In this document: positions 7,634 to 31,469 of the stretch, piece by piece
Layout: the number at the start of each line of letters is the position of its first letter
Position numbering within the stretch: the stretch's first letter is position 1
The notes under the pieces: model-generated
Seen by the model: the letters and a program-made list of their open reading frames with translations, nothing else
The model's database searches: none
Told to the model about the DNA's origin: nothing
NCBI GenBank assembly: GCA_026997215.1
Contig: JALWJP010000184.1
Span: forward strand, 340-31,808
Length of the DNA: 31,469 bases
From: Nanobdellati archaeon
GTDB taxonomy: Archaea; EX4484-52; JAADEF01
Reading direction: 5' to 3'
Program-made: the position numbers and the translations under genes

Positions 7634-7660
7634 CTATCATTAAGATAATCATGTAAATTT

Positions 7661-7673: not shown

Positions 7674-7699
7674 GCAATGTAAGGGGCAAGCCGTATGGC

Positions 7700-7984: not shown

Positions 7985-7991
7985 TTTATCA

Positions 7992-8025: not shown

Positions 8026-8042
8026 GTTTTGCTAACAATTCA

Positions 8043-8336: not shown

Positions 8337-8758
8337 ACCTCTCTATTTAAGAATAATTTTATCATTGCGAACACTACATTAACTATAATTATTGCTATTA
8401 TTATGCTTGTTAGTTCTTCTGGAATCCTCAATATTCCTGATATTTCTGATACAAATATCTCATACATACCCATTAAAGTCGTGAATATTAATTTTGAAGT
8501 CTCATAAAATGTAACTAATGTCACTACAGGCATATTCAATAACTCTATATCACTGATCCTTGCACTTTTTATTGATTCGGCCATATCATATGCCATATTT
8601 TTTATTTCTGAAACATAAGAAGTTACTGCATAATTCTCTATTTGTACTCCATAAGACTCACTAATATCACTAAAAAACATTCCTAATGATGTCATTACTA
8701 ATGAAAATACTAACATTAATACAACGTAATCTTTTAAGTTCATTATCTCATCCTCCAT
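8333..8758 (-). CDS. Membrane protein, virion module
   Basis: 141 aa, N- and C-terminal hydrophobic helices with an amphipathic middle. Confidence 0.75.
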   Translation of the reverse strand: MEDEIMNLKDYVVLMLVFSLVMTSLGMFFSDISESYGVQIENYAVTSYVSEIKNMAYDMAESIKSARISDIELLNMPVVTLVTFYETSKLIFTTLMGMYEIFVSEISGILRIPEELTSIIIAIIIVNVVFAMIKLFLNREV

Positions 8759-11700
8759 AATATATATACTCCTAATACTACCATGGCTATTATTGATGAT
8801 ATTGTTACCATTAAGAATCCCATCACCATTGAAAATATTAATGTTCCTAAAACCAATGTGACACTAATTGCAGGATTATAATACCCAACTCCTATTGCTA
8901 ATAATATCATTAATAATGTTAGGAATAAACCGTCCAAACCAATATTAAACACATATGATTTTTTGCCTATTGTTTTTTCTTCCAATAATATCTCCTTACC
9001 TTCTCCATCAATTGCATATAAGTAATATATATAAGATGAACTTGATAAATTTAAATCATTGCATATCAATTCCAAACTACTGCCTGTTCCTTCATTCTTA
9101 CATGCTATAGTGTAGTTCAATAATGGTAATTCCTCATAAACTATTAACTTTGCACTCTTCATTAAACCTGTTATGTCGGATATTGTGCATGATACTTTTG
9201 TATCACTATAACTGCAATCATATAAGATGTTCTTCCTTTGTAAATACTCGTATTGTATATCTTGAGATACTTTTATGTTAACCGTGAATGGTGGGCATGT
9301 GCTATCTATTCCACAACCTATTATAAATCCATCAGTATCTGCAACAACTTTGTTATTATGTTCTACTATTATCCTATATGTTGCTGTATATGGCTCTATA
9401 AATGTAGATATTTTACCTTCAAAATCAGTATAACCTACATATATAGATATGTATTTATCTTCTGTTGGATAATACCTCATTACTTTAACTAAGTATCCTT
9501 GTAATGGATTACCTATTTCATCAACCACCCTAACAATACCTACATAACTAACTAAATACCTCAATAAGTATAGCACTATATTGTTAACACCTAAAACATT
9601 ATCTCCTGATATGTTAAGTATATACCTTCTTTTCACATAATTGTCAGGATCTAAATCATCATAATAATGATCACCGTATATATTAAATGGTAAGTTTTCA
9701 GAACTAACTAAACATAATTCTTTTGTTGTGTTGTTAAACCTAAAAGTATAATGTCTACTAGCTTTTTCTGTACTTACATCATATATGGCATCTATAATGA
9801 AATCATTTATTACTGTATTATTCTCCTCATCTCTAACCTCGTATATGAACTTATTAGGATATGTGACTCCTTCACATAACCTAAGGTATAGTCCATATAC
9901 TCTTGTTGTTATACTACTTCCTAATGGTCTAACTGAGCCAGATATAATTAATTCTCCTGTTATCTCTCTATCCTGATACTTATCTCCATCTGTTTCTATG
10001 CTTGCATCAGTTATATTTATCATATCAACATCATATGATACTTTTAATGAATTATTTACTTCTATTGTTCTCTGTGTATTTTGTCCTGTTACATTTGTTA
10101 TATATGTTTTAATTGTCCATAGATGCTTATTACAATCATTTATACAAAACATAGTGTAAGTTATGTTCTTTACATTACCCTCTAATATTTTACTATCAAA
10201 ACTTACTCCTTCTAAATAATACCCATACATTAATGTTGTAGTGTTGCTAAATACTGTTTCATTAACTCCTTTATCATACAACCATTCAAAGTTTATGTTT
10301 GTTGCGTTTGTGATGATTAATGGATTTGTTACATTTGCAATGAAACCACCATCATACTTTTTTGCTATAAATGTTGCACTAACAACGTTAATACCTTTAG
10401 ATTTAAATTCAATAGTATCGTATTTCTCTTTTATAACCCATCCATCATATACTGTATTGCTATATACTACATTACCATTCAAATATAATATTACATCAAC
10501 ACCGCCATAACAAATGGTATTTGGTATACAACTATCAACTATATTAACTTCTAACTCATCCATAGATGTATTAAAGTAATAAGTGTAAGGTAAGGTAGTT
10601 AAAGGTATTATTATTTTTGAATCGCTGTACTCATAACTAACAACACTACCATTATGGATGAAATACATATTGGATTTATTAAACAAATATTCGTTAATCA
10701 ATAATTCCAATTTATAATTATATACTTCATCTTCATATTGATAAGGTGTGAAACTGTAATTTATTAATACATAATCATCAACAGTAAATAATATTTCCTC
10801 ATAATTTCTGTTGTAAGAACTATCTATTGCATAAACTGTAAAGTTATGCTGTCCTTCTTCTAATAAATTAGTATTATATTGTAAAATTGTTGCGTTTAAA
10901 TATGTTTCATTATTGTAAATCAAAACATCATCAAACCATGCTTTTAATGTGAAATTGCTATCTTTATCATCTATTGCGTAGTATGTGATATTAAAGTATG
11001 AAGTGTAATACGTTTTATTTTCCACTCCTGTTACGGTTATTGTTTGTGGGTTATCTGTTTGCTCAACTCCGACACTTGTTATTGGTTCAGGTGTAACATA
11101 TTGTCTTAATATTATATTGTCCCAATTTGTCTCCGCAGTACCTGAAGCCGATCCGTCTATATGTGAAATTTCTAAATAAGTAAACCCTAATAATGAACTG
11201 TCATCTACGCTATAGATATTTCCGTAAATGTTTGCAGTAATAGTACTTCCATTATAGCAAAAAGTTGTATGGTATGTTCCTACACTTCTTAATGTAGTAT
11301 CACTTAATAATGTTGTATCAGTACCCGCAACCTTTTTAATAATATATGGTCCATCTCCATTTCCTGTTGTCATATGCATTCTATACTCATTACTAGCGTC
11401 AACCATTACGTGTATTATTCCTCCTGATGCACCTACTCCTTTAGTCCAATCAAAATCTACACAAAATGTATTAAAAGTTGTTAATGTATTAGTATCTGAC
11501 GAAAACCAACCACCTGAAGCTGCGTCTGTTATACATGTTAAATTTAAACTTGTAGAGTTAATAACACAATTAGGGTCTACACTACTCCACTTGCTTAAAT
11601 CACTACTAAAATCTTCATAAAATATAAAAACTGCTGTTGCATTACTTTCACTTGTTGCTAGTGAGTTACCATACCACATCTGTATTGTGTATGTGCTTGA

Positions 11701-12027
11701 CGCAGGAATAGAAGGAACTTTAACCCAAATTCTTGTATTGGCACTATTACAACTTCCATCTTCTATCCAATAACTTAGCTCAGTAACTCCATCGCTTTCA
11801 GTAAATCTAATATCGGAACAATCACTATTCATCTTTCCTTCACTAATTATTGTTGCTGTATCAACCGTTACTAGAACTTGGTAATCTGTTAGTACGTTGC
11901 TGTTTCCTGTATTGTCGATAGTAATATCTCTATAATAACTCCAACCTGATAAGGCATATACGCTACTCATACTCATAAATACTGTTAATAGGATCATACT
12001 TATTAATATCCTATTGTTCATGCCCAT
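8743..12027 (-). CDS. Large secreted, membrane-anchored adhesin/receptor-binding protein with N-terminal DUF2341-like domain
   Basis: Signal peptide; WSYYRDITI...DYQV...SDCSDIRFT...LSYWIE...IWVKVP (DUF2341 pattern); beta-rich repeats; at least 25 N-x-S/T sequons by hand count; 2-3 C-terminal TM helices. Confidence 0.8.
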   Translation of the reverse strand: MGMNNRILISMILLTVFMSMSSVYALSGWSYYRDITIDNTGNSNVLTDYQVLVTVDTATIISEGKMNSDCSDIRFTESDGVTELSYWIEDGSCNSANTRIWVKVPSIPASSTYTIQMWYGNSLATSESNATAVFIFYEDFSSDLSKWSSVDPNCVINSTSLNLTCITDAASGGWFSSDTNTLTTFNTFCVDFDWTKGVGASGGIIHVMVDASNEYRMHMTTGNGDGPYIIKKVAGTDTTLLSDTTLRSVGTYHTTFCYNGSTITANIYGNIYSVDDSSLLGFTYLEISHIDGSASGTAETNWDNIILRQYVTPEPITSVGVEQTDNPQTITVTGVENKTYYTSYFNITYYAIDDKDSNFTLKAWFDDVLIYNNETYLNATILQYNTNLLEEGQHNFTVYAIDSSYNRNYEEILFTVDDYVLINYSFTPYQYEDEVYNYKLELLINEYLFNKSNMYFIHNGSVVSYEYSDSKIIIPLTTLPYTYYFNTSMDELEVNIVDSCIPNTICYGGVDVILYLNGNVVYSNTVYDGWVIKEKYDTIEFKSKGINVVSATFIAKKYDGGFIANVTNPLIITNATNINFEWLYDKGVNETVFSNTTTLMYGYYLEGVSFDSKILEGNVKNITYTMFCINDCNKHLWTIKTYITNVTGQNTQRTIEVNNSLKVSYDVDMINITDASIETDGDKYQDREITGELIISGSVRPLGSSITTRVYGLYLRLCEGVTYPNKFIYEVRDEENNTVINDFIIDAIYDVSTEKASRHYTFRFNNTTKELCLVSSENLPFNIYGDHYYDDLDPDNYVKRRYILNISGDNVLGVNNIVLYLLRYLVSYVGIVRVVDEIGNPLQGYLVKVMRYYPTEDKYISIYVGYTDFEGKISTFIEPYTATYRIIVEHNNKVVADTDGFIIGCGIDSTCPPFTVNIKVSQDIQYEYLQRKNILYDCSYSDTKVSCTISDITGLMKSAKLIVYEELPLLNYTIACKNEGTGSSLELICNDLNLSSSSYIYYLYAIDGEGKEILLEEKTIGKKSYVFNIGLDGLFLTLLMILLAIGVGYYNPAISVTLVLGTLIFSMVMGFLMVTISSIIAMVVLGVYILWRMR

Positions 12028-12029
12028 GA

Positions 12030-12296
12030 TTACAACACCTTCATCATGCTTCTTATTATCTTCCTTATCTCACTAGCTGTTTTTCTTGATATTCTTAAAT
12101 TACTATTATTTTTCTTATAAGTTAGATGATAAAGCAATAATAGTCTACCTTTTGCTATCTTCTTTGTTATTTTGCCTTTATTATAATCACTCAATATAGC
12201 CTTTATAATTTCTTCAAATTCTTTCTTGTTGCTTAATCCTTTTTTTCCTATGTCACTAACATTTACACCTAAATATACGTTTCCCATGTTATTCAC
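12030..12296 (-). CDS. Small basic protein, putative nucleic-acid binding
   Basis: 88 aa, K/R-rich. Confidence 0.7.
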   Translation of the reverse strand: MNNMGNVYLGVNVSDIGKKGLSNKKEFEEIIKAILSDYNKGKITKKIAKGRLLLLYHLTYKKNNSNLRISRKTASEIRKIIRSMMKVL

Positions 12297-12436
12297 CTTA
12301 CAAAATTCTTCATTACTTTCATATATTCTTTCAACTTCTTCTTTATCTCCTTATCATTAATTTCCTTCTCATTCAAAACAACACTCATATCTATTGTTGC
12401 AATATCTATTATATCTTTTTTATTTACACTCTTCAT
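12293..12436 (-). CDS. Small hypothetical protein (47 aa)
   Basis: Hand-translated MKSVNKKDIIDIATIDMSVVLNEKEINDKEIKKKLKEYMKVMKNFVR; AGGTGA SD. Confidence 0.55.
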   Translation of the reverse strand: MKSVNKKDIIDIATIDMSVVLNEKEINDKEIKKKLKEYMKVMKNFVR

Positions 12437-12461
12437 ATTGATATCACCTTCTATTCAATAG

Positions 12462-12746
12462 TCAAGGTTCTAAACGTGCATAATATAAGTCTGGGAAGTT
12501 TATTCTTATGAAACTAATAACCTTCCTTTTAAATCCTTTTGGCAGGTACAATATCCCAGGAACCTCGTCATATCCTTTGACATATCCTGGCTTAATTTCA
12601 ACCTTTATATCATACTTCATTTCCAATGCTTTCTTCAATTCATATAGATCCTCATAAGGAATGTGTGGTAGAAAGGTTATTTCTTCCTTACCTGCTGCCC
12701 ACTTAAAACTACTCTTAGATGCCTTCTTGCTTTTGCTCTTACTCAT
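12462..12746 (-). CDS. Small protein with K/S-rich N-tail, paralog of 6615..6833
   Basis: MSKSKSKKASKSS tail; C-terminal motif shared with 6615..6833. Confidence 0.75.
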   Translation of the reverse strand: MSKSKSKKASKSSFKWAAGKEEITFLPHIPYEDLYELKKALEMKYDIKVEIKPGYVKGYDEVPGILYLPKGFKRKVISFIRINFPDLYYARLEP

Positions 12747-12750
12747 ATTC

Positions 12751-12933
12751 TCACCTCTTTTTCCTTTTTTTGGTTATCATCTTCTTTCTTGTCTTGTACT
12801 TGCCTTCGCTTTTTGCTTTCTTTGCCCCATCTATTGCTCCAGCCAACATATCTCTCTCTTTCTTGTTTAACTTCTTACCTTTACTAACCTTCGACATAAC
12901 CTTTCCTAACTTATCTAATCTTTTCTTACCCAT
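12751..12933 (-). CDS. Very basic 60-aa protein, putative genome-condensing virion protein
   Basis: Extremely K/R-rich (ends KMITKKRKKR); sits in the structural module; role analogous to fusellovirus VP2 is inference. Confidence 0.65.
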   Translation of the reverse strand: MGKKRLDKLGKVMSKVSKGKKLNKKERDMLAGAIDGAKKAKSEGKYKTRKKMITKKRKKR

Positions 12934-12937
12934 TATC

Positions 12938-13408
12938 TCACCTTCTTAAATACATTATTATTATTAATGCAACTCCTATTAAATTAACAACTAATGGTAA
13001 GTATTTAACCAATGAAAGCAATAAAGGATATGAATTAAATATTGATGCAAATATCTCATCTGTTATAAATATATAAATCACATCTGAAAATATTATTGCT
13101 AAAAAGTCAAACAATAAAAGTGATACAACTGCTCCTATCAGGAATATTGGATGCACCGGTATTAATACTGCTGCAACCAATGATGACATGGCTAAAAGGA
13201 ACACTAATGTCACCAATAATTTTGCAAAATAATCATACAACCCTGTTGTCCCACTATACATACTCATTGTTATTGTTGAGTTGTCAACATCATTAACCCA
13301 CACATCTGCAAATGTGCTGTATAGGTAAAATGATACTCCAAAAATGAACACTCCAACCAAAACATATACTGGAACCATAATCAAATCTTGCATACTCACT
13401 ACCATCAC
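12938..13408 (-). CDS. Polytopic membrane protein (about 4 TM), virion module
   Basis: Four hydrophobic segments; NST sequon in the first loop. Confidence 0.8.
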   Translation of the reverse strand: MMVVSMQDLIMVPVYVLVGVFIFGVSFYLYSTFADVWVNDVDNSTITMSMYSGTTGLYDYFAKLLVTLVFLLAMSSLVAAVLIPVHPIFLIGAVVSLLLFDFLAIIFSDVIYIFITDEIFASIFNSYPLLLSLVKYLPLVVNLIGVALIIIMYLRR

Positions 13409-16356
13409 CTTCTTCTCTTCCTTCTTCCTCTCTTTGTTCTTCTTGTTGGTGAAATTATTGGTCTTATCTCCAAACCAGAGAATACTTCTTTGCTAACTCT
13501 TGGTGCTTTTATTCCGAACTCTATTGCAACTAATGAAGGTGCATAACTATATTTAAATCTTCCTCTACCATATTTTGGTTTAGGTTTGCTAGGCAAACTA
13601 AAACCGCCAATATCTTTTATTCTTGGAGGTAATGCTGTTGTTATAAGCGGTGGTGTAATCTCTACTTTTGGTGCTGTTATCTCTATCTTCGGTACACTTA
13701 CCTCTTGTGGAATTGGTTCACTAACTACTCTCGTCATAGGTTGTTCTATTGGTGGTTGTTTAAGCTGATAAGTCTGTATACTCTCCAATTTTGGCATCTG
13801 TGGTTCTTGTATTGGTTTGGTAGGCATCTTTATTACGTCTTTTATACCAGTGGAAGGTATTGTTATCATCTCTCCCTTTCCTACTTTAATAGGCATTATT
13901 CCGAATCCTTTGATTGTTGGTTTACCTATTGGAACTTTAAGCCCTCTAAAATCATAAGATACCTTACTAATATCGAATTTAACCTCAGGAAGTTTAACCT
14001 TTAAACCTGCCTCTGGTTTTAATATCTTTGCCATATCTTCTTGTATTGCTTCTGCTTTAATCTTTGTTCCTGTTAATGATAATCCACCTTTTAACTTTCT
14101 TCCAAATAATGGTTTCTTGCCTTCTATCACAACTTTAAACTCCTTATCAGGTATTGCATACTTTTCAACAACATCCATACCTCTTATCTCCTTTAAACGT
14201 GTTGTTCTAACTAATTTCCCTTGCTTCCATACTGCGTCTCCTATCTCAACTATATCTCTTATATTCCCTTCTGTTGCATATGATATTTTTTTGACTTGGT
14301 GAACATTTAGTTGTTTCATTCTCGCCAATCCTTCATTAACTGATTGCATTTCCTTCTCTATAACTATTGGTAATTTCTCTCTCCTAAAAACTCTAACCTC
14401 TTCTGCTTTTGCTGGTTCTTTGGTTATTGGCAATCCTCTCAATTTACCTTCTCCTTCAAATAGGATTCTGTTCTTGCCAATATCAACTATTCTATAATGA
14501 TATTTATCTCCTGTGATATACTCAACCATTCTTCTGTTGCCCTTAACAACTTTACTATATACTTTTAACTTGTCAAAAGAAGTGCTGAACTTCATCTTAT
14601 AATCAGGTGTATTAACATTAACAATTGCTGATTCTGGTTTCTCATACATAACCTTATACCTACCTATTGTTGGTTTCTGTTCTAATAGTATATTCTTCTC
14701 TCCTTTAATCAACATTGTACCTTCTCCTTTGATTGCTTTGCTTATCTCTTTCGGTCTTGTTATTATCCTACCTCTTCCCTCAACACGTGTCTTAGGTGTC
14801 TTTATCGAAGTCATGTATCCTTCAAATGTTTTTTGATATATTCCTGCTCCTGCTTTACCTAAAAAGTAGAACATTGGTATTGCTGCTATATCTCCTATTG
14901 CTTTTGATAAGTCTTTCTCTTTAATACCTTCATAAACATCATATCCTGTCATTCCTGCATAAGTGATGCCCATTCCAATACCTATTCCTTTTGGTGCTGT
15001 TCTAACTGCTGTAACTGCCAACTCTGCCGCTTTTGTTCCTGGCCTAAGTAATGGAACCCACCTAACATTAGATAATGCCACACTACCATATCCTGCTATC
15101 TCTGTTAATGCAACTGTTGATAATGTTCCTGCAACTTGTTTCTTTTTATATGTTTCATATGCTTCTATACCTCCTGTATTCAAAATGTACAATCTTTTTG
15201 CCAATCTCTCTTTTGCTATATCGCTTGGTGTTGGCAACCATTCTTTTGCTTTCTTCTCTAATAAAACATCGTACTTTTCAGGTAAGAATATCTCTGCTGT
15301 TTTAATTGCTCCCCATCCTACTGCACTACCTATATACCTTAAACTCCCTCCTCTAAACATATTAATATCTTCAAATAATGCTGCTCCATGTGCCTTAATC
15401 TTTGTCTTATATGATGTTTCGTATATGCTTTTGGCAACTTCCTGTGCTGATTCCCATTCTTTTTGAATATCATAACCAATTTGTGGCTCGTATTTTGATA
15501 CTCCATATATGTATAATTTTGGCTTATGATATGCTGCATAAGTATCTAGATATTGGTTATATCTAATCTTATTCTCTTCTACTTTTTTTAGACCTTCATC
15601 TATATCCTTTGTGTCTATTGCCTCAACTTCACTTTTTGCTTTTAGTAATCTCTCCTTCTCAGATTCTAAATAAGAAATTGCTTCGTTACCATATAATTTT
15701 CTACCTTCTACTATTAAATATAATCTATCATCTTTTTTAAGTGCTCCTATTTTTTCATCTAAATCTTTAAGATTCTCCTTTATTCTTCTTTCATAAGCCT
15801 TCTTTAAAAACATTCTATACTCTCTCTCTTTCCTTAATGCTTCTTTTTGTCCTTCGAAATCTGTTGAAGATGAACTGAACGTGCTTATATTCCTTAGATA
15901 TTGTGCAGTACTTGTTGGTTCTGTTTCTTTAAATCTACCTTCCTTCTCATCATAATAATAAGTTTTCCCTTCTTCGTCAACAAACCTTCCTCCAACATAA
16001 TGTATTCTACCCCCACCCTTCTTTTTAACTAATTCCTTGGCCTTTTCTTCATACTCCTTTCTTGCTCTCCTTCCTTTCTCATACAATTTTCTTGCCTTGC
16101 TTATTGCTTCTGTATCACCTCTTTTTATCTTCTCTATCCATTTCTCCCTTTCTTCACGTGTATAAACTGATAAATTTTTAACATAATTGACTAATGTTCC
16201 CTTATCAACTGAAGAGTTTGAACTTCTTCTCGAACTTGATTTCCTTTTATTAGAAGATGAAGATTTAGACTTTTTCTTAGGTTCATCTAAATAAACAACT
16301 GTTCCATCTGCTCTTACTGAGAACGGCCTTCCCAATTGTACTCTAACTTTAACCAT
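13405..16356 (-). CDS. Large 983-aa protein: basic termini, coiled coil, central Gly/Ala hydrophobic helices, Pro-rich linker; putative virion/DNA-delivery protein
   Basis: K/S/R-rich N-terminus, helical K/E region, GIGIGMGITYAGMTG-type segments, P/Q/E-rich region, C-terminal YAPSLVAIEFGI...GLEIRP then poly-Arg. Confidence 0.75.
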   Translation of the reverse strand: MVKVRVQLGRPFSVRADGTVVYLDEPKKKSKSSSSNKRKSSSRRSSNSSVDKGTLVNYVKNLSVYTREEREKWIEKIKRGDTEAISKARKLYEKGRRARKEYEEKAKELVKKKGGGRIHYVGGRFVDEEGKTYYYDEKEGRFKETEPTSTAQYLRNISTFSSSSTDFEGQKEALRKEREYRMFLKKAYERRIKENLKDLDEKIGALKKDDRLYLIVEGRKLYGNEAISYLESEKERLLKAKSEVEAIDTKDIDEGLKKVEENKIRYNQYLDTYAAYHKPKLYIYGVSKYEPQIGYDIQKEWESAQEVAKSIYETSYKTKIKAHGAALFEDINMFRGGSLRYIGSAVGWGAIKTAEIFLPEKYDVLLEKKAKEWLPTPSDIAKERLAKRLYILNTGGIEAYETYKKKQVAGTLSTVALTEIAGYGSVALSNVRWVPLLRPGTKAAELAVTAVRTAPKGIGIGMGITYAGMTGYDVYEGIKEKDLSKAIGDIAAIPMFYFLGKAGAGIYQKTFEGYMTSIKTPKTRVEGRGRIITRPKEISKAIKGEGTMLIKGEKNILLEQKPTIGRYKVMYEKPESAIVNVNTPDYKMKFSTSFDKLKVYSKVVKGNRRMVEYITGDKYHYRIVDIGKNRILFEGEGKLRGLPITKEPAKAEEVRVFRREKLPIVIEKEMQSVNEGLARMKQLNVHQVKKISYATEGNIRDIVEIGDAVWKQGKLVRTTRLKEIRGMDVVEKYAIPDKEFKVVIEGKKPLFGRKLKGGLSLTGTKIKAEAIQEDMAKILKPEAGLKVKLPEVKFDISKVSYDFRGLKVPIGKPTIKGFGIMPIKVGKGEMITIPSTGIKDVIKMPTKPIQEPQMPKLESIQTYQLKQPPIEQPMTRVVSEPIPQEVSVPKIEITAPKVEITPPLITTALPPRIKDIGGFSLPSKPKPKYGRGRFKYSYAPSLVAIEFGIKAPRVSKEVFSGLEIRPIISPTRRTKRGRRKRRR

Positions 16357-16404
16357 GATTAATTAGTTTTCGTCCATATTTTAAAAATATGTAAAAATGA
16401 AAAA

Positions 16405-17256
16405 TTATCTTGTTGTGTTTATGTTATTGACCACATTATATAGCCTATTAACCGCTACATCTAATTTATTCGCTGTATCCTGCATATTATCAGTACTTTC
16501 TTTTATCATTTGTGCAACATACACATTTTGATTTGATTGTTGTTTCATTGATTGCGTGATAGTATATGACACGTTTCTTAATTCATTTATTGTTTGGTAT
16601 GTAAGTTTCTTTTGCATGTCCATTGTATTTTTAAATGTGTCTGCAAACTTATTATGCATCTCTGATATTTTCATACTACCATATACGAATATTACTGACG
16701 TCATCAATATTGCCACTAATGCTAATATCTGTACGCCATATTTTGACCAGAAATCCATTTTACTTCTGTACATCTCATAACTATCGTGGTATTGTTGAAC
16801 TAACCAACTATCCTTATCATATGTTTTTTGTGCTATCATATGTGGAATTGGTACTATCTCTCCATTATCTAATTCTATGTCTCCTCTGAATATTGGCACA
16901 TCATCATAACCAATTAAATTCCCATCATCGTCGTATTTAGGAACCTTCATGATTAAATTTGTATCATCTGATAATATAGGATAAAACAATTCATTTGACA
17001 TTTGATATAAGTATATCGTTGCAACATCATTTATATTGTAGAACTTGCTAATATCTTGTAATGGTATTTTATAATTGTATTTTTTCCTGCCAACCTTAAT
17101 GAAGAAATCAAAAAACTTATATGCTACTTCTCCATTATTTTCTATGTTCCTTCTCTTCTCCCTTAACACCCTACCTCTACCATCATATATTGCAATCCCA
17201 TTTCCATATTTCCTAAACACAAACACTTTTATAGGATACTTTGTAGCCTCAAACAT
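16405..17256 (-). CDS. Single-TM membrane protein with C-terminal coiled coil, morphogenesis module
   Basis: Start reassigned to ATG at 17256 (MFEATK) after GAGGTGA; TM ILALVAILMTSVIFVY; heptad Q/N/M-rich tail. Confidence 0.8.
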   Translation of the reverse strand: MFEATKYPIKVFVFRKYGNGIAIYDGRGRVLREKRRNIENNGEVAYKFFDFFIKVGRKKYNYKIPLQDISKFYNINDVATIYLYQMSNELFYPILSDDTNLIMKVPKYDDDGNLIGYDDVPIFRGDIELDNGEIVPIPHMIAQKTYDKDSWLVQQYHDSYEMYRSKMDFWSKYGVQILALVAILMTSVIFVYGSMKISEMHNKFADTFKNTMDMQKKLTYQTINELRNVSYTITQSMKQQSNQNVYVAQMIKESTDNMQDTANKLDVAVNRLYNVVNNINTTR

Positions 17257-17260
17257 TTTC

Positions 17261-17785
17261 TCACCTCTTAAATGGAAGTATTGACCTCTTCTCCTTATCA
17301 TCTCCTTCCTTTACTATTACCCTCTCTGAACTTCCTATAACTCTCATTCCCATTCCTGCTAATGATTTCCTAAGGTTACTTTCAAATAGGTTAAGTATTA
17401 TGCTTATGACTATTGTTGCTTTATCAGGTGTTAAATCAAACTTCTCCATATTGACATAATAGAAGTCACTCAACTTCCTCATAAGATACCTGCATATTAT
17501 CATCACTCTATCTTCATCGTAAATAGATAATCCATAGATCCTACCATCTATAAATGCTGATATTAATGCTATTGTTTGCTCTATCCCTTCCTCATTCATT
17601 AATGGCTTTGCACCTTTTGGAACTTTTATCTTTATTGCACCTGTTTTCTTATCCTCTTCTACATACCCACCTTTAAGTTTTGCTTTTAACTCATATACTA
17701 ATAATCTGTAATCAAACATCCATCTTACTTCCTTCTCTTCTGGTGGATTATAACTCTCTTCCTCAACACGTCCTTCTGTTTCCAT
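17261..17785 (-). CDS. Hypothetical helical protein, morphogenesis module
   Basis: 174-aa ORF with GGTGA SD; PLMNEEGI motif. Confidence 0.75.
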   Translation of the reverse strand: METEGRVEEESYNPPEEKEVRWMFDYRLLVYELKAKLKGGYVEEDKKTGAIKIKVPKGAKPLMNEEGIEQTIALISAFIDGRIYGLSIYDEDRVMIICRYLMRKLSDFYYVNMEKFDLTPDKATIVISIILNLFESNLRKSLAGMGMRVIGSSERVIVKEGDDKEKRSILPFKR

Positions 17786-17795
17786 TTAATCACCC

Positions 17796-18122
17796 TTACA
17801 ACTCGCCTATCGTCATTCTTGGTATACTTCTCTTTATTCTTTTTAATAATTCTATAAATTTGAATTCTGATATTGCAGTACTATACATCTCCATATCTTT
17901 TGTTCCTATTTCTTCTTCTAATCTTCTACTTTCTTCTTCTATCTTATTGAAATAATCTTGATCCAATTCATCCATCATTAAACTCTCTAATGCTGATACA
18001 TATACAACAAAATCTCTTGTACCATATCTATCTATTATTTTAAGTATTGTGAATTTTATTATATCATTTATATCCAAATCCTTTATCACTGATGCAACCT
18101 TTACTACGTCTCCTTCGCTCAT
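17796..18122 (-). CDS. Hypothetical protein
   Basis: 108-aa ORF directly downstream of the ATPase. Confidence 0.75.
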   Translation of the reverse strand: MSEGDVVKVASVIKDLDINDIIKFTILKIIDRYGTRDFVVYVSALESLMMDELDQDYFNKIEEESRRLEEEIGTKDMEMYSTAISEFKFIELLKRIKRSIPRMTIGEL

Positions 18123-18123
18123 A

Positions 18124-19131
18124 TCAACCCCCCTTCCACATCTTCTCTATTATTCTTTTTAACCTTCTTGCTTGAGAATATGTTAGTCCAAACTCATCTC
18201 TTAAATCATCTAAATACACTCTACCGTTATTCATTAACCTGTCTCTTAATTCGGGTGTATCTAAAACTTTCTTTGCTAACTCATCCAATTGATTCTTCTT
18301 ATCTTCCTCAGAACCAAATTCTGATTCTTCAAACTTTTCTATCTCCTTTAATAAATCTTTACCTAATTTATCCTTAAACTTCCTTGCTCTCTCTTCATAT
18401 GCTCTTGCCAAATCTTCTGAAGGCAAACCAACTTTTACTGATGATAACTTCTCAATTGTTCCTGTTGCTACATTGTATATCCTTGGTGCTTTATAGTATA
18501 TGTTACCAGTATAATAATCTTTTATCAGTATTCTTGGATTAGTATATACCGTCTGCATACTATTCTCCAATACTTTGTTGTTGAATAGAACATACTCCAT
18601 TAACTTCCTAACTCCTACATCAACAAAACTTATGTGTGGTGTGATAACCATTGCCATTCCTCTCTTGTATCTAAATGTTGATAAGATATAAAGTATTGCT
18701 CGGTTAATGAATGAATAGAATGTTCTGTTGTTTATCAATAATTCTGCCTCGTCTAATATCACAACTTGCCCCGGCAATGTCTCTCCTGTATGCCTTTGTC
18801 TTCTATTATCCCAATAGTTTATTGCTTCTATGAATGCCTTAGGTGTCCACACAACCTTCTTATCTATATCTTCTAAAAGATACTTATCCATTTGTTCTCC
18901 TATCTTTAACCCCGTATAGGATTTACCAACTCCAACCAACCTTCTATTATTCCCTGTTATAGAAATAACAAACCCTCTTCTATTATCATATATCTCTTTC
19001 TCAAATAGTTTTATCAACGCTTTATCTCCTTTCCTTGGATCATATTGCATATAAACACGAACATAATCACTGCTACCTTGCATAAAACTTTCATTAACGT
19101 CATACTTTAAAAAGATTCTACATATTTCCAA
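18124..19131 (-). CDS. P-loop ATPase of morphogenesis (Zot/fusellovirus B251-like) type with C-terminal HTH
   Basis: ITGNNRRLVGVGKS (expanded Walker A), VVILDEAE Walker B, STFRYKR; C-terminal LDDLRDEFGLTYSQARRL HTH; ATG at 19083 is a likely leaderless start about 25 nt from a TTTAAA box. Confidence 0.75.
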   Translation of the reverse strand: MEICRIFLKYDVNESFMQGSSDYVRVYMQYDPRKGDKALIKLFEKEIYDNRRGFVISITGNNRRLVGVGKSYTGLKIGEQMDKYLLEDIDKKVVWTPKAFIEAINYWDNRRQRHTGETLPGQVVILDEAELLINNRTFYSFINRAILYILSTFRYKRGMAMVITPHISFVDVGVRKLMEYVLFNNKVLENSMQTVYTNPRILIKDYYTGNIYYKAPRIYNVATGTIEKLSSVKVGLPSEDLARAYEERARKFKDKLGKDLLKEIEKFEESEFGSEEDKKNQLDELAKKVLDTPELRDRLMNNGRVYLDDLRDEFGLTYSQARRLKRIIEKMWKGG

Positions 19132-19176: not shown

Positions 19177-19821
19177 GTGAAAATAGTGCAATATTCAAAA
19201 AAAAGCTATTTTTTGAATAACTATTTAAATTCTACTGATAAATACTATTATATGCCCCGATACTCTTACAATTTAGATGATTTTATAATAAAACTACTTT
19301 TAATGTCACCGGAAAAAAGATTAAAGATAATCAGAAGAATGTATAACATACTCCCTAATGCTGAACAAAAAGCTGCTTTTGCCTTACTTTATATCTATGG
19401 ATTAAGACCAGCAGAATTACTTGAATTAAAACAATCAAACTTCCAACAATTAAATGATAACACCCTTCGTGTGTTCTTACCTACTAAGAAAGGTGGTAAG
19501 ACACGTATAATAGATTTAAATATAAATGAAACACCTTTCTTAAAAGAAACATGGGAATTCATAAAATCTCGTCCTTGGAAGATATTTCCACGTTGGAATC
19601 ATGTATCTATACTCAACAACACTATATTTAAAACCATCTATGAAGTGTTAGGTATAAATATAAGTCCTTATGCCTTCCGTCATTATAGGTTATCCTTTAT
19701 AATGTATAATGGTGGAGATGTACATGAAGTTGCTGCATGGAAAGGAGCATCAGACATTAGAAGTGTAATGCCTTATCTAAGATTTAAACCTGTAAGTAAA
19801 TTTAAAAGAAAAATAAGTTAA
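19177..19821 (+). CDS. Minimal tyrosine recombinase/integrase (catalytic domain only)
   Basis: LLYIYGLRPAEL (Arg I), KKGGKTR (Lys), PYAFRHY (Arg II), SVMPYL (Tyr); likely start ATG 19252, about 25 nt after TTTAAAT; only plus-strand gene. Confidence 0.85.
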   Translation: MKIVQYSKKSYFLNNYLNSTDKYYYMPRYSYNLDDFIIKLLLMSPEKRLKIIRRMYNILPNAEQKAAFALLYIYGLRPAELLELKQSNFQQLNDNTLRVFLPTKKGGKTRIIDLNINETPFLKETWEFIKSRPWKIFPRWNHVSILNNTIFKTIYEVLGINISPYAFRHYRLSFIMYNGGDVHEVAAWKGASDIRSVMPYLRFKPVSKFKRKIS

Positions 19822-20285
19822 GGTCTTGTTATGTATGCCGCTATGGTTAATGCCGTATGGTATAACCCATCATTTGCCCTAACTTCTTTTGTTATTATCT
19901 TCATTTCATCTATCTCCCATCCTCTCATCTCAAATGCTTCTTTAAGCATATTCTCTAATTTCTCTCTAACAACTTTCTCCTCAACTTTGTCATGGTATTC
20001 ATAAAATAACCCCCCTCTTCTCCCTTTTATTGTTGCATATCCAATTCCACAACTTGCTACTCCTTCTTTTATAGTTATATGAGAATATACTGCTGGTATT
20101 ACCTCTCCTATTTCTAAGGTAGGTAGTTTGTCTATAAATTTGGCTGTCTCAGGTATAACACTACTCAACTTAACCAAATTCACATTACCTACTCCCGCCT
20201 TCAACAATGCGTTATCAAAAGAAGATAGTTCCTCTTTACCAACACCCTCACTACTATCTATATATATCCACACTTCTTCCATCAC
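19818..20285 (-). CDS. pdaD: Pyruvoyl-dependent arginine decarboxylase (makes agmatine)
   Basis: SSFDNALLKAGVGNVNLVKLSSVIP signature including the Ser-Ser autocleavage site; GLFYEY conserved Glu; 155 aa. Confidence 0.9.
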   Translation of the reverse strand: MMEEVWIYIDSSEGVGKEELSSFDNALLKAGVGNVNLVKLSSVIPETAKFIDKLPTLEIGEVIPAVYSHITIKEGVASCGIGYATIKGRRGGLFYEYHDKVEEKVVREKLENMLKEAFEMRGWEIDEMKIITKEVRANDGLYHTALTIAAYITRP

Positions 20286-20292
20286 ACATCAC

Positions 20293-21642
20293 CTATGATA
20301 TATCATTTTCATTAAGATTTAATAAATTTTTGAACCCATACAATGCTATTAACAAACTATCAAAATAATCAGGTGATTTATCCTCTCTATCTATCACCCT
20401 ATATTGTCCATATTTATTATAGTCATATCTTATGTTTATCAAATCATCAATTAATGCAGAATCCTTAGGTATTAATATCTTACCATCATCTAACAACTTC
20501 TTTAATATAAATGCCATCTCTGTTTTTATGTTCTCATACTTCTCCTTATTAAAAGGTTTAGCCATGGCATAAAACTCCTCTACATTATCATACCCTCTCT
20601 CCCTTAACATATCCACAACTCCTGCTCCAACGCCATTTGCATCAACAACTATCTTATACATATTCTCCTTGCTATAATTTGTATAGATATAACTCACATT
20701 ACTCACTACCGATGATAATTCCTTCTTCGTTAATTGTTTTATACGCCTGATATAATATTTATCCTTATGTGGTGAATATGCCAATACTGTTATCACGGTA
20801 GAATCATCACCAAACCTCGCAACATCAACCCCTATCACCATCTTTACACTCTCTTTATAAGGTACTTTGAAGTTATTGTAATCTTTATATGCCTTTTTAA
20901 TGCTTTCGTGAGAATATAATGCATCTTCATCATCAACAAACTTAACTTCATACATCTTAACAAATTCTGTATTGCTCAATAAACTCTTCATTTTCTCCAC
21001 ATCTTTTAATGATAGTCTGCCTTCTTGTACTGCCAATTTATAATCTATCTCATATACTTTGTAATCCTCATCATTATAAGTATTGAAAAAGTGGTTCTTC
21101 ATTATTGGTGTTCCGTTCTCTAATATGATGCCATCTTTCTTAACGGTTCTCATAACATAATTCCGGTATTTGTAATCGTCTATAATCACACTCTCATCAA
21201 CTATCAATAAGTCTGCATTATATAATACATTCTTCCATAACTTATCATGTATATGTGCTGCTATTATCTTGCTATTATTTTTAAAAACAATTTTATCGTC
21301 AGAAAATTCCGGTCTTGGTACACTAAAATGTTCCTTTATATATTGTTGGCTTATTAATGGGCTTCTCTCTATTAAGTTCTTTATATATCCCATAACCATC
21401 TTAGATTGTTTACTATTGTTTGACATTATCACAACTTCAACATTATCATTCAATATAGCAAATAGTAATCCCGATATTGCAGATATATAAGATTTTCCCC
21501 ATTTCGGTGGTGCTAATATCAGTAACCTTTTAGTATGGGCTAAAACATCCTCTAATATATTTAATTGTGTGTTTGTTAATTCAACTTCTGGTAACAATGT
21601 TTTCACAATCATCTTCACAAAAAAATCCACTATTATCACCAA
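20293..21642 (-). CDS. terL: Terminase large subunit (ATPase + RNase H-like nuclease)
   Basis: LTNTQ Q-motif, APPKWGKS Walker A, LLIVDES Walker B, GTP coupling motif; nuclease GVDVARFGDDST, VVDANGVG, SPDYFDS. Confidence 0.88.
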   Translation of the reverse strand: MVIIVDFFVKMIVKTLLPEVELTNTQLNILEDVLAHTKRLLILAPPKWGKSYISAISGLLFAILNDNVEVVIMSNNSKQSKMVMGYIKNLIERSPLISQQYIKEHFSVPRPEFSDDKIVFKNNSKIIAAHIHDKLWKNVLYNADLLIVDESVIIDDYKYRNYVMRTVKKDGIILENGTPIMKNHFFNTYNDEDYKVYEIDYKLAVQEGRLSLKDVEKMKSLLSNTEFVKMYEVKFVDDEDALYSHESIKKAYKDYNNFKVPYKESVKMVIGVDVARFGDDSTVITVLAYSPHKDKYYIRRIKQLTKKELSSVVSNVSYIYTNYSKENMYKIVVDANGVGAGVVDMLRERGYDNVEEFYAMAKPFNKEKYENIKTEMAFILKKLLDDGKILIPKDSALIDDLINIRYDYNKYGQYRVIDREDKSPDYFDSLLIALYGFKNLLNLNENDIS

Positions 21643-22098
21643 TTATATACTTGCTGTTTGTATCTTCTTATTAGATAACCATTCTTTATATAAATTCTTT
21701 ATCATCTCTATATTGTCTGTATGTATCTTTGTGATATTTGTTTGTTCCTCAATATCATCATCTTTCAACCTAAATGCACTTAATACCTTTCCATATTCTT
21801 TACCAATATCAACTATTGCTTTGATGGCATCTAACTTCTCCTTCGCGTTTGAGGAATAAAACAATATCTTCTGTGCTTCTTTTAAGCTTTTGGCAAATGC
21901 AAAATGTAAAGCAACGCCAACCTCTTTGACTTCCTTGGTTGACGCTGCTTTTAGGATCCATTTTATATCCCTATTTATTGTCTCATATCTAACTCCATAT
22001 TTCTCTGCTAATGCTGTTCTGTTTATATTGAATAATCCTATCTCTTCTATTAATTTCTTTATCTCTAACCTTCTCTCCATTGTTTTTAATGGTGGCAT
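21643..22098 (-). CDS. HTH protein, putative terminase small subunit
   Basis: NRTALAEKYGVRYETINRDI HTH; immediately upstream of terL. Confidence 0.6.
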   Translation of the reverse strand: MPPLKTMERRLEIKKLIEEIGLFNINRTALAEKYGVRYETINRDIKWILKAASTKEVKEVGVALHFAFAKSLKEAQKILFYSSNAKEKLDAIKAIVDIGKEYGKVLSAFRLKDDDIEEQTNITKIHTDNIEMIKNLYKEWLSNKKIQTASI

Positions 22099-22110: not shown

Positions 22111-22695
22111 TTATAATCCATACTCTTTAATTAAATCGTCTAATGAAATCTCAAATTCCTTCAAACAATGTGGGCATGTTATTGTGACTAATTTCTTCAT
22201 CTTCTTCTCAACTGCTTTCTCAAACTTCTCCTCTATTTCTTTTTTCTCCTTCTCTATATCTTTCTGTGTTATGGAAGTATCCTCTTTTATTATATCTAAT
22301 ATCTTCTCCAATTCCTTGCTATCGAATCCAACAACAACCTCATCTAATATTGTTAACTCTTCTCTCAATAGATCATAATCCCATGTTGAATATTCAGAGA
22401 TCTTATTGTCTGCTATTCTATATGCCCTTGCTGTTTTCTCATCCATATCCTTCACAATAACTGGTATCTTCTTATATCCTAACTCCTTTAATGCTTTGTA
22501 TCTTGCATGACCGGTTATTATCACATAATTCTTATCAACTAAAATAGGTACATTATAGCCATATTTCTGTATAGATTCTTTCAACAATTTTATTGCCTCT
22601 TTATGTACTCTTGGATTCCTCTCATATGGCTTTATCTTCTCAACATCTACCATCTTTATCTCCATATCCTTCTTGTTTGCCTTCTTTCCCATCAT
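22111..22695 (-). CDS. ParB/Srx-like N-terminal domain protein with C-terminal CPHC zinc knuckle
   Basis: IKPYERNPR, SIQKYGYNVPILVD, ITGHARYKAL, IADNK; CPHC. Confidence 0.88.
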   Translation of the reverse strand: MMGKKANKKDMEIKMVDVEKIKPYERNPRVHKEAIKLLKESIQKYGYNVPILVDKNYVIITGHARYKALKELGYKKIPVIVKDMDEKTARAYRIADNKISEYSTWDYDLLREELTILDEVVVGFDSKELEKILDIIKEDTSITQKDIEKEKKEIEEKFEKAVEKKMKKLVTITCPHCLKEFEISLDDLIKEYGL

Positions 22696-23063
22696 TTATC
22701 ACCTCTTTTATTATAATCCATGTAAAAATCTAAACTTGTTTTGTTTGGTATATCCCTGTTAATTAAATCAACTTGGTAAACAAAATCATCCATAACCCAA
22801 TATTTGTATTTTCCAAACTTAACATACTTGTAAGTCCAATTATTAAACTTCTTAGTATAACCGCATACCTTAATGAACTTCACAAAAAGTATAAAAGTGT
22901 CTAGGTCTTTGTCATCAACATCTTTTTTTAATAAATACCAATGTGGTGCTTTTTTGGCATATGTTTTCGCCCATCTCCATTTACCTAAAACCTCATACTT
23001 CCTTATAAAATTGTTTAACCTCTGTATAACATGCTCATCAGTACAAATATACATAACTATCAC
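22692..23063 (-). CDS. Aromatic-rich hypothetical protein within the ParB/IbrAB cluster
   Basis: WRWAKTYAKKAPHWY...YKYVKFGKYKYWVM; overlaps both neighbours by 4 nt. Confidence 0.75.
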   Translation of the reverse strand: MIVMYICTDEHVIQRLNNFIRKYEVLGKWRWAKTYAKKAPHWYLLKKDVDDKDLDTFILFVKFIKVCGYTKKFNNWTYKYVKFGKYKYWVMDDFVYQVDLINRDIPNKTSLDFYMDYNKRGDK

Positions 23064-23770
23064 TCATATTCAAATCCTTTCTCATTCTTATGTTTCTCCT
23101 TCCACTCCTTCTCCAACTTAACCATATTTGTTGTTTTCCATGCTTTGTTATATGGAACTTTCTCGAATAATTTGCTAAATCCTGATATATGTTTCAATCT
23201 TATTAACTCCTCTGGCTCCATACCTAACCTATTACATATCTCCTCATCACTCCAACCATTTTTCAACATATCAAACACTATCTTTGCCATTGACACAACT
23301 TGGTGTTTACCTCTTGCTCTGTTATGTCTTATTGTTGATGCCATCCTCTCATTTATATCCTTCTCTATAACTACTACAGGTAGGAATCCTTTGTTCCTAT
23401 TGTATATATCCTTGTACAACCTCATTAAAGAATATCTATGGAACCCATCAACTATTGTATATTCATCTTTATCATCATCATAAAATGCAACAACTGGTTG
23501 TGTATATCCATCTTCATATACACTTTTATATAGCAATTCCATTTCAGTATTGGCAACAATATTAGGATTATAATCGTTTGGTTTAACTTTCTCATATCTT
23601 ATCCATCTGACAAAATCAACTGGATTAACTGAAAATGGTGAGAGTCTATGCAACTTATCCCTTATTGTATTTATGACTTCTGCCTTACTATCTAAATCAT
23701 CAACACTATCCATTAACTCCTCTATCTCCTTCACTATCTTATCTAATTTATTCTTATATTTCTTCTCCAT
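23060..23770 (-). CDS. IbrB-like ParB/Srx domain protein
   Basis: PVDFVRW, NDYNPN, SVYEDGYTQPVV, IVDGFHRY, ASTIRHNRARGKH; start moved to ATG 23770 after AGGTGA. Confidence 0.88.
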   Translation of the reverse strand: MEKKYKNKLDKIVKEIEELMDSVDDLDSKAEVINTIRDKLHRLSPFSVNPVDFVRWIRYEKVKPNDYNPNIVANTEMELLYKSVYEDGYTQPVVAFYDDDKDEYTIVDGFHRYSLMRLYKDIYNRNKGFLPVVVIEKDINERMASTIRHNRARGKHQVVSMAKIVFDMLKNGWSDEEICNRLGMEPEELIRLKHISGFSKLFEKVPYNKAWKTTNMVKLEKEWKEKHKNEKGFEYE

Positions 23771-24887
23771 ACCCTTCACCTTCTTTCTGTTTTTTCTTAG
23801 TATAACGATGATATTCCCAATCAATCACTCTCCTAACCTTCTTTAATAATGCAAACTCATCAAAATCTCCCTTGATAACTGCCATAACTTGTTTCTTAAT
23901 GAAGTGGTCATAATTGGGCATATCTCCATACTTAACATCCATCTTATGTACAAAATTAAGCATATCCTTTGCTTTCTCTTTTGGTATCAACTTTTCTATC
24001 AAATAATCTCGGTATTCTTTCCAATTCTCAAACATATAGGGCAACTCAATCTCACCCAACATATCCATAAATTTAGTATAAGAATGTATGCCATGCAATC
24101 TCTTAACTAATTTATTATATAATTCAGCATCAACTTCTTGTAAATATTCTAATGAATATAACGCACCTTCATGGTGTAGGCTACTAACTCTCATATTCTT
24201 TATTGGCACTCCTTTCTGGTATTGTAAATCATAAATCTTATTATAAGGAAGGTTATTATCATGTATGTATTTCCAAACATCAGTGTAACTCCAATCATAA
24301 ATTATTGCGAAGTTATAATGTAATTGATTCTTGTTTCCTCTTCCCCACGTTATGTTCTTGTAAGATAATCTTGCTGTTAATGCTGAAAATCTTGTTGGGC
24401 TCTCTTCTGCTCTTAAACCATATATAACTGCTGTCTTTGTGTTCTTCCAATAATAATCTCTTATTCCATCAAACAAATCATAGAAATCTATAACATTGAA
24501 TTTATTCTCCTTTATTGCAATATCGTCTTTCTCCCTCAACCACTCCTCACCTTCTCTCCAACACCATAAATACTTATCCCTTGTTATTGCTGTTGCATTC
24601 ACTAATCTAAATTCTCCTTGGAACCAATAAGGATCCACATTTTTGTCATACATCACCTTTCTGACCAACTCTATTGTTTGTGGCCACTCTGCTTCTTGGT
24701 CTATAAATATAACTGGTAGTGGCAATACTCCTCTTCTTTTTGCTTCTTTCAATGTTATGTCTAATATAACCGTACTATCCTTTCCTCCTGAAAAATTAAC
24801 AACAACATTATCAAACTCATCAAAAATATATTTAATCCTTTCCTTAGCTGCTTCTACAACATTTTTATTTAAATACACTTTCATCAA
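23754..24887 (-). CDS. IbrA-like PAPS-reductase-family PP-loop protein
   Basis: VNFSGGKDS PP-loop, FIDQEAE, GLRAEES, IYDWSYTDVW, YNKIYD; only one Cys, so no APS-reductase Fe-S motif. Confidence 0.88.
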   Translation of the reverse strand: MMKVYLNKNVVEAAKERIKYIFDEFDNVVVNFSGGKDSTVILDITLKEAKRRGVLPLPVIFIDQEAEWPQTIELVRKVMYDKNVDPYWFQGEFRLVNATAITRDKYLWCWREGEEWLREKDDIAIKENKFNVIDFYDLFDGIRDYYWKNTKTAVIYGLRAEESPTRFSALTARLSYKNITWGRGNKNQLHYNFAIIYDWSYTDVWKYIHDNNLPYNKIYDLQYQKGVPIKNMRVSSLHHEGALYSLEYLQEVDAELYNKLVKRLHGIHSYTKFMDMLGEIELPYMFENWKEYRDYLIEKLIPKEKAKDMLNFVHKMDVKYGDMPNYDHFIKKQVMAVIKGDFDEFALLKKVRRVIDWEYHRYTKKKQKEGEGYGEEI

Positions 24888-30415: not shown

Positions 30416-30679
30416 TTATATATTTTTTACCTCTAAAATAATGAACTCCTTTAATATACTCAACAAATTATCAAATGATTGTTGTTTGAAGTGATATTCC
30501 ATACTTTTAATATCTTCCTCATTATCTGATTTAAATTCAAAATTATTATTATACCACCTTACATGATGATCTGAGATTTCTAAAACAAACCATACTAGGC
30601 TAAGTCCATCGTAATAAATAATTGTTGTTATATCATAACTATCCATTAATGCTTTTATTTTCTTTTTTATATCCATCAC
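30416..30679 (-). CDS. Hypothetical protein
   Basis: 87-aa ORF overlapping the vWA stop by 4 nt. Confidence 0.65.
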   Translation of the reverse strand: MMDIKKKIKALMDSYDITTIIYYDGLSLVWFVLEISDHHVRWYNNNFEFKSDNEEDIKSMEYHFKQQSFDNLLSILKEFIILEVKNI

Positions 30680-31469
30680 CTCTCTATTTTTATTATTTTA
30701 TCATGATATTCTTTAATATACTCATCTGTTCCTTGTGATGTTATTATCCAAATAAGATTATTTATTTTATTTCTGTATTTCTCATAATTATATGTATCCG
30801 TCCATCCATCTGTTAATATCGCTAATTGCTTTATATTATTATCTACTGCCCATTTCATTCCTTTAATCATATCTGTTCCTCCACCTCCTTTTGCTTTTTT
30901 GAATATTTTCTTTAACTTCTTTATGTCGTTTTGATAGAGTTCTGTTTCTTCTTCGTGTTTTACTTCTGTATCTATGAATGCTATTTTTAATTTAACATTT
31001 TGATATTGCCTTATTAAATCTGATAATACTGATAAGAACTCACCTAACTCATCTTCACTTATTGATCCTGATGTATCTATCACTGCTCCTAATCTAATTT
31101 CCTCTCCATAAGTTGACGGTAGCGGTGCATTTATTATCCATGTTTTTCTGTGATATCTTTTCCAAGAATAATCTTTCTTTATACTTTTATTTAATGAAGA
31201 TTTTAGAATGTTTTTCCAATTGATTTTTTTAGTTAATACTTCATTTAGTATTCTATCTATATCTTGTGATAATTTACCTCCTTGTTTAGCATGTTGTATC
31301 CCTTTTTCTAAATCTGTTTCTATTTCTTTTCTTTCTTCTACTGATAGTTCGTCATAATCATCAATATCTTCAAATTCGTTGAAAGAATCTAATACACTTT
31401 CATCAATCTCTCCATCTTTTAAATTATCATTATTTTTCCATCGTGGATCATAAGAATTATCATTTTTTC
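30676..31469 (-). CDS. DUF2201-like vWA-domain protein, 5'-partial
   Basis: VIDTSGSIS MIDAS, GGGGTD, ILTDG; the frame stays open to the window end (...INWKNILK...YSWKRYHRK...LPST..., typical DUF2201 linker), so the track start at 31083 is internal. Confidence 0.88.
   Translation of the reverse strand, partial: KNDNSYDPRWKNNDNLKDGEIDESVLDSFNEFEDIDDYDELSVEERKEIETDLEKGIQHAKQGGKLSQDIDRILNEVLTKKINWKNILKSSLNKSIKKDYSWKRYHRKTWIINAPLPSTYGEEIRLGAVIDTSGSISEDELGEFLSVLSDLIRQYQNVKLKIAFIDTEVKHEEETELYQNDIKKLKKIFKKAKGGGGTDMIKGMKWAVDNNIKQLAILTDGWTDTYNYEKYRNKINNLIWIITSQGTDEYIKEYHDKIIKIER

Follow-up and report, generated by a model that had tools for sequence, protein, structure and literature searches.

The gene for a large terminase subunit (TerL) is located on the minus strand at 20293..21642 of the window, a term used here for the whole stretch of 31,469 nucleotides that was analyzed, corresponding to positions 340–31808 of a 31,808 nt contig (JALWJP010000184.1) of a Nanobdellati archaeon. 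The open reading frame comprises 449 codons from a TTG without internal stop; the database form is 441 aa long, its start being annotated 8 codons later. Translation more likely begins at a GTG (codon 5 or 9) or at the ATG of codon 11, and a Shine–Dalgarno-like GGTGA motif at 21636–21640 lies ahead of these GTG and ATG candidates. The protein was matched by the Pfam families Terminase_6N (26.7 bits at a gathering score of 22, residues 41–248) and Terminase_6C (27.5 bits at a gathering score of 22.6) and by PHROG 2, "terminase large subunit" (E = 2e-24). An AlphaFold2 (AF2) model, calculated with 136 homologs as input, reached a mean pLDDT of 92.8 and a pTM of 0.84, and was matched by Foldseek to the full-length TerLs Sf6 gp2, T4 gp17, D6E and HK97 at E = 1e-19 to 1e-15. 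The best TerL matches among deposited viruses were to Halogranum tailed virus 1 (26% identity) and T4-like cyanophages (25%). With the T4-type TerLs (T4 gp17, HGTV-1, cyanomyovirus) the protein has in common two domains, a Q motif, a Walker A GK[ST], a Walker B hhhhDE, a T/N-P coupling motif and an RNase H-like acidic nuclease site. Judged from its sequence and the modeled structure, the gene is predicted to encode a complete, intact T4-type large terminase with a two-domain fold.

The ATPase domain covers residues 1–255 (20878..21642, minus strand) and the RNase H-like nuclease domain residues 262–436 (20335..20859, minus strand). Walker A, A44-P-P-K-W-G-K-S51 (21490..21513, minus strand), conforms to the pattern G/A-x4-G-K-[ST] with A44-PPKW-G49-K50-S51, and the loop before Walker B together with the Walker B strand, residues 135–150 with the sequence LWKNVLYNADLLIVDE (21193..21240, minus strand), conforms to hhhhD-E with LLIV-D149-E150. 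An earlier note on this DNA, made from the letters alone, had described the ATPase motifs as eroded beside an intact nuclease, pointing to a Walker A without the arginines of GRRxGK and to a missing RG dipeptide before Walker B, and had suggested a relaxed motor in a terminase that works without a portal. All strings quoted there are present on the minus strand, namely APPKWGKS (residues 44–51), KNVLYNADLLIVDES (residues 137–151), GVDVARFGDD, VDANGVG and SPDYFDS.

For comparison, an exhaustive search for TerL relatives was performed, yielding 3375 sequences, 83 of them with E ≤ 1e-30, and a clade consensus was derived from the alignment of 136 full-length relatives. The closest relative, P0122 from a Thermoplasmata MAG (5.7-kb contig), is just 40% identical, and full-length identity to the uncultivated clade as a whole ranges from 26 to 40%. 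This clade spans archaea-labelled MAGs (Bathyarchaeota, Thermococci, Archaeoglobus, Methanofastidiosum) as well as bacteria-labelled ones (Levyibacteriota, Syntrophomonadaceae, Melioribacter; both sets on genome contigs L085–L113). Among 41 other genomes of the host's order no close TerL relative and one distant match were found, and in public data the element stands alone. About ten of the relatives are 750–870 aa long (P0166, P0168, P0182, P0196, P0209, P0217, P0221, P0230, P0232 and P0246), and most of these align to the query not end to end but in two or three separate segments, which suggests inteins or fusions within the clade.

The Walker A consensus of the clade is A-x-T-R-x-G-K-[ST]. 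At positions 3 and 4 the 136 homologs carry TR in 88 cases, TQ in 29 and RQ, the arrangement of T4, in 8; about 22% of the clade are without any Walker A arginine and have glutamine in its place. In TerLs generally, the Walker A arginine is described at position 3 or 4, with exceptions carrying Gln (PMC6379665). The P22- and lambda-like TerLs are such exceptions to the arginine toggle, with a conserved Gln (PMC6379665), whereas the window TerL has a Lys and belongs to a different family. Ahead of Walker B, the clade carries [L/M]-G and not R-G. The column of the finger residue R139 of P74-26 was placed by aligning the profile with ATPase structures of P74-26, among them 4ZNJ, the entry of the R139A mutant; it is occupied by V139 in the window TerL, by Met or Leu in 107/136 homologs and by Arg in 9/136, so that 127/136 are non-Arg. 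By this alignment, the clade as a whole is evidently without the P74-26-type finger arginine at "RG". In T4, by comparison, the Walker A Arg occupies position 3 (SRQLGKT) and R-G precedes Walker B, whereas the window TerL has Pro at 3, Lys at 4 and V-L. GRRxGK and RG, the yardsticks against which erosion had been read, are thus not the consensus of the TerL's own clade.

The relatives that share these features are found beside portal genes. Across 80 related-TerL loci from IMG/VR, the gene downstream of TerL is a portal gene, often MuF-fused, followed by an HK97-type major head protein, and a portal HMM built from these loci detects the portal in 61/80. A portal is present in 15 IMG/VR loci whose TerL reads A-x-T-Q-Y-G-K-S, and a "TQ" TerL with a portal also occurs in a Bathyarchaeota provirus (AVTQYGKT, QLMGFG) and in a Levyibacteriota locus; in these genome-contig loci, TerL immediately precedes the portal gene. 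The Arg of "RG" is also absent from nearly all Arg-less TerLs located next to portal and HK97 capsid genes. Portal-bearing relatives thus share both of the motif states pointed to, an outcome that the earlier note had named as refuting its reading.

Compared with the head-tail members of the clade (P0122, the Bathyarchaeota proviruses and IMG/VR loci L002–L056), the window TerL shares the non-Arg finger column, R165 and the motif KSPD[YF][AF]D[SA]. It differs in having P-K in place of T-R/T-Q, Leu140 in place of Gly140 and Thr166 in place of Met166, and in a neighborhood in which no portal was found, where the relatives carry a downstream portal (often MuF-fused) and an HK97 capsid gene. Three of its substitutions are unique among the 136 sequences: T46P in Walker A, P75N, and G140L, the last in a column with Gly in 132/136 homologs, a residue which also follows the finger column in T4 and P74-26. 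R47K in Walker A is rare (4/136, the window TerL counted), M166T nearly unique (2/136), and G142N is a further departure from the clade. The protein therefore has no Walker A arginine at either position, with Pro at 3 and Lys at 4. P0122 holds the full consensus at the changed sites (AMTRYGKT / EQLLGFG / RML / IGNP), so the changes are specific to the lineage of the window TerL. In the AF2 model, the loop of residues 131–140 has the lowest confidence within the ATPase core (mean pLDDT 72).

A candidate for a different arginine finger is R165 (21148..21150, minus strand), which is Arg in 124/136 homologs. It is positioned 15 residues after the catalytic Glu150, between a helix (156–163) and a strand (167–177) of the AF2 secondary structure. 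In D6E TerL, phi29 gp16 and HerA-FtsK ATPases, the finger lies between alpha3 and beta4, D6E R158 (phi29 R146) being located 15 residues past E143 (PMC5727402); Xu et al. reported a trans-acting finger for D6E TerL and phi29 gp16, and a Lys of Sf6 at the P74-26 position (PMC5727402). The pair E150/R165 of the window TerL thus has the same spacing as E143/R158 of D6E, whose structures were among the top fold matches of the window TerL at a sequence identity of ~12%. Unlike the window TerL, D6E has a cis P-loop Arg (R44). On the basis of spacing and secondary-structure position, R165 is considered a candidate trans-acting finger of the D6E/phi29/FtsK type.

The two domains were then compared for their rate of change. 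Of the columns conserved at ≥70%, 13/32 deviate in the ATPase half vs 1/26 in the nuclease half (Fisher p = 0.0014; asymmetry rank 2/136), and among the nuclease columns conserved at ≥80% none of 21 deviates. Corrected distances to the family average 1.87 in the ATPase half and 1.55 in the nuclease half, a ratio of 1.20 vs a family median of 0.93 (rank 2/136). Tip branches were estimated per partition on a fixed FastTree topology: the ATPase branch is 1.48 substitutions per site long (rank 3/136, median 0.57), the nuclease branch 0.88 (rank 53, median 0.78), and the normalized ATPase/nuclease tip ratio is 2.43 (rank 3/136). The ATPase half has changed ~2.4 times more than is the norm in the family, relative to the nuclease half, and is marked as the fast-evolving domain by both its conserved columns and its tip branch. 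The nuclease is canonical, as had been stated: the 136 homologs show no variation at D273 and D334 and ≥90% conservation at D425 and D428, and all four acidic residues are kept in the window TerL. The window TerL is also the most AT-biased of the 136 sequences (FYMINK residues 41%). Across the family, AT bias and the ATPase/nuclease ratio are uncorrelated (Spearman −0.12, p = 0.16), and other AT-rich members have ratios <1; AT bias as sole cause of the ATPase excess was therefore rejected.

Within this fast-changing half, the window TerL keeps Q26 of the adenine-binding Q motif, G49-K50-S51, D149-E150 and R165, together with the T178-P179 coupling motif and E207-G208-R209. Of the ATPase columns conserved at ≥90%, 8/10 are retained. 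By rough arithmetic, an unconstrained site would remain unchanged with a probability of ~0.23 at 1.48 substitutions per site, and the chance of at least 8 of 10 sites being kept under neutrality would be ~2e-4, an estimate which is conservative because the neutral rate would exceed the domain average. As 8/10 strongly conserved columns have been kept despite a long branch, the catalytic core appears to be still under selection. With all catalytic residues present in the sequence, the ATPase is best described as remodeled rather than decayed. Of the erosion described in the earlier note, what stands is that the ATPase half has indeed changed to excess, ranking 2–3 of 136 on three measures of its divergence relative to the nuclease; the term itself is overstated, the catalytic ATPase residues all being kept.

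Upstream of the TerL gene, a small-terminase (TerS) candidate of 151 aa with an N-terminal HTH is encoded at 21643..22098 (minus strand), its stop codon abutting the TerL ORF. It was weakly matched by a PHROG of unknown function (E = 1.8e-4), and in 5 related viral loci the gene immediately ahead of TerL encodes a weak BLAST relative; from this sequence evidence, an assignment as TerS is plausible. Beyond it is encoded a ParB-N domain protein (22111..22695, minus strand; PHROG 620, E = 9e-54), which is present in 21 related TerL loci. On the other side, a pyruvoyl-dependent arginine decarboxylase gene (19818..20285, minus strand; 108 bits) occupies the position of the relatives' portal gene. 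A second arginine decarboxylase copy is present on another contig of the probably archaeal bin (~0.9 Mb; G000:C48:2795–3217), and given this copy the viral gene would seem to be a host-type auxiliary metabolic gene. Convergent with the decarboxylase gene, with an overlap of 4 nt, lies the gene of a short tyrosine recombinase (19177..19821, plus strand), 214 aa or less and consisting of the catalytic domain alone. It is the sole convincing plus-strand gene and divides the packaging genes from a block of membrane-protein genes.

This 12-kb block (7229–19131) stands where tailed viruses carry their genes for head and tail. Three of its ORFs measure 108, 174 and 298 aa, and a TM helix and a coiled coil are predicted in the 298-aa product; the block also encodes a basic, Gly-rich protein of 983 aa, several multi-TM proteins, one of them 156 aa long, a secreted, sequon-rich protein of 1094 aa with a DUF2341 and a C-terminal membrane anchor, and small membrane proteins including a hydrophobic two-helix protein of 94 aa (7700–7984). 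At its end, an orphan P-loop protein of 335 aa (18124–19131) carries both Walker motifs, A as GKS and B as ILDEAE. For this protein, no homolog was detectable in 5.8 billion clusters, a word-indexed protein search returned just the protein itself, and tblastn against deposited phages returned nothing; its neighbors in the ESM Atlas are unnamed viral clusters, one with the Zot family in 14% of its members. The 983-aa protein gave nothing usable in the ESM Atlas. For both proteins, scans of IMG/VR found no relatives and PDB sequence searches gave noise. Its make-up, rather than any shown homology, is reminiscent of the virion modules found in spindle or pleomorphic viruses of archaea.

Head genes were searched for in several ways. 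Screening of essentially all ORFs ≥88 aa against PHROGs and Pfam gave no head or tail match besides TerL, custom portal and capsid (MCP) HMMs remained at noise level across the window, and hhalign of every ORF ≥90 aa against portal and capsid alignments gave probabilities ≤1.1%. The sole unannotated ORFs ≥290 aa are those of the 298-aa TM-helix protein and the 983-aa basic, Gly-rich protein. The remaining genes have the look of a tailed-virus replication and recombination set, comprising a Sak4-like ATPase, a Cas4-like nuclease, a RusA-like resolvase, Dam, an RNA ligase, two ParB-N proteins and a PAPS-reductase-like protein. The latter (377 aa) and an adjacent ParB-like protein (254 aa), encoded at 23060–24887, are 50% and 53% identical to the products of L023:723–2532, a portal-bearing IMG/VR head-tail virus whose TerL is merely 26% identical to the window TerL; the modification module and the terminase therefore differ in history.

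As to completeness, ten Ns are located at contig positions 330–339, immediately left of the window. The two contig ends are bridged in frame by a minus-strand ORF (window 30676–31467 and 1–264, and L082:2–328), which continues a DUF2201/vWA gene, and a MoxR-type AAA gene (271–1338), the usual partner of a vWA gene, sits at the opposite, left end. Neither Pfam nor phage searches returned a match for the N-terminal pieces of the vWA gene that spans the ends. From the in-frame junction and the gene pairing, it is considered fairly probable that the contig is a closed circle of ~31.8 kb, and in a circle that is probably complete there would be little space for a head-tail module to go unseen. Four contig segments correlate at 0.92–0.97 in their tetranucleotide profiles, with the TerL segment closest to the membrane block; given these uniform profiles, assembly chimerism was judged unlikely.

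Taken together, the reading favored here, which we regard as probable with some reserve, is that of an active, lineage-specifically remodeled T4-type terminase with an HTH-type TerS candidate. Such a TerL most likely still hydrolyzes ATP and cuts DNA, the ATPase activity being deduced from the retained residues, and the HTH protein encoded just upstream may pair with it as small terminase. Most of the apparent erosion is the normal design of the clade, with a Walker A Arg at position 4, no P74-26-type finger and, in the alpha3–beta4 link 15 residues past the catalytic Glu, an Arg at the position of the trans-finger of D6E and phi29 gp16. Atop this design, R47K, T46P, P75N, G140L and M166T have reshaped the periphery of the active site, at the P-loop entrance, in the loop before Walker B and at the residue after the candidate finger. 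We infer that this remodeling would have adapted the protein to a partner, or to a pathway of assembly, of an unusual kind, and would not be decay. The Lys in place of the Walker A toggle Arg and Leu140 in a near-invariant Gly column count against an active ATPase. The alternatives considered below are not mutually exclusive with this reading.

Rather unlikely, in our estimate, is an ordinary head-tail archaeal virus whose head genes are too divergent for detection or unassembled, the ATPase excess being long-branch noise in an extremely AT-rich orphan lineage. It would be in line with a TerL that is the most AT-biased of 136, with several AT-ward replacements (R to K, G to N, P to N, A to I), with the 10-N gap at contig positions 330–339, with the many window ORFs that are orphans without family matches, and with the tailed-type non-structural genes (Sak4-like, Cas4-like, RusA-like, ParB, Dam). 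However, the simple portal HMM that was positive in 61/80 related loci is silent in the window, there are few unannotated ORFs ≥290 aa to hold a head gene (the 298-aa TM-helix and the 983-aa basic, Gly-rich protein), and the end-spanning ORF with MoxR and vWA at opposite ends suggests a circle of ~31.8 kb without room for a head-tail module. The domain asymmetry, moreover, is absent from other AT-biased members of the family.

The reading closest to the earlier note, a motor that is relaxed or decaying in a TerL acting mainly as a TerS-guided nuclease which cuts replicated concatemers for a portal-less virion, is considered improbable. The ATPase is indeed an outlier by distance ratio (1.20), tip ratio (2.43) and deviating columns (13/32 vs 1/26), AT bias offers no explanation for this asymmetry (Spearman −0.12), and neither a portal nor an HK97 capsid was detected by PHROGs, Pfam, custom HMMs or hhalign, a membrane-protein block standing in the place of the head genes. 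These findings point toward the proposal, which is partly supported by them, and the motor may have a changed role or partner. On the other hand, the ORF is intact and confidently folded in the AF2 model, both cited motif losses are common to TerLs of portal-bearing viruses, and Q26, GKS, DE, R165 and the T-P coupling motif are all kept; with none of the catalytic ATPase residues lost, a relaxation of selection on ATP hydrolysis is disfavored. A satellite-like hijacker, that is, a capsid-less integrative element using its own TerS–TerL to load helper procapsids, with an ATPase surface diverged to dock a foreign portal, would suit an integrase, a TerS candidate and a TerL without detected capsid genes, and there are precedents among bacterial satellites for carrying or retargeting terminase components, archaeal satellites having been proposed as well, but it is very improbable for an element of 31.8 kb with a large replication/recombination set and a 12-kb membrane/secreted block unlike known satellites, for which no helper virus was identified and no related element found.

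TerL, the motor by which tailed and herpes-like viruses are recognized, is not known to function anywhere but on a portal vertex. The remodeled terminase described here combines a fast-evolving motor half with a neighborhood in which no portal or HK97 capsid gene was detectable, making it a candidate for terminase reuse in another assembly route or in a satellite. One tentative and on balance doubtful extension is a complete circular archaeal virus of ~32 kb without portal or HK97 capsid, with a spindle- or pleomorphic-like virion block made up of the 94-aa two-helix hydrophobic protein, several membrane proteins and an anchored glycoprotein of 1094 aa, and with a captured tailed-virus TerS–TerL, the ATPase having been re-tooled for portal-less maturation or packaging. 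If true, a terminase would be at work outside the head-tail and herpesvirus world; should the TerL prove to be a regular terminase from a tailed virus whose annotation is poor, its significance would be minor. For the TerL family, the comparison holds a lesson for motif-based annotation, in that a large uncultivated clade appears to be without the P74-26-type finger, and a fifth of it without a Walker A arginine.
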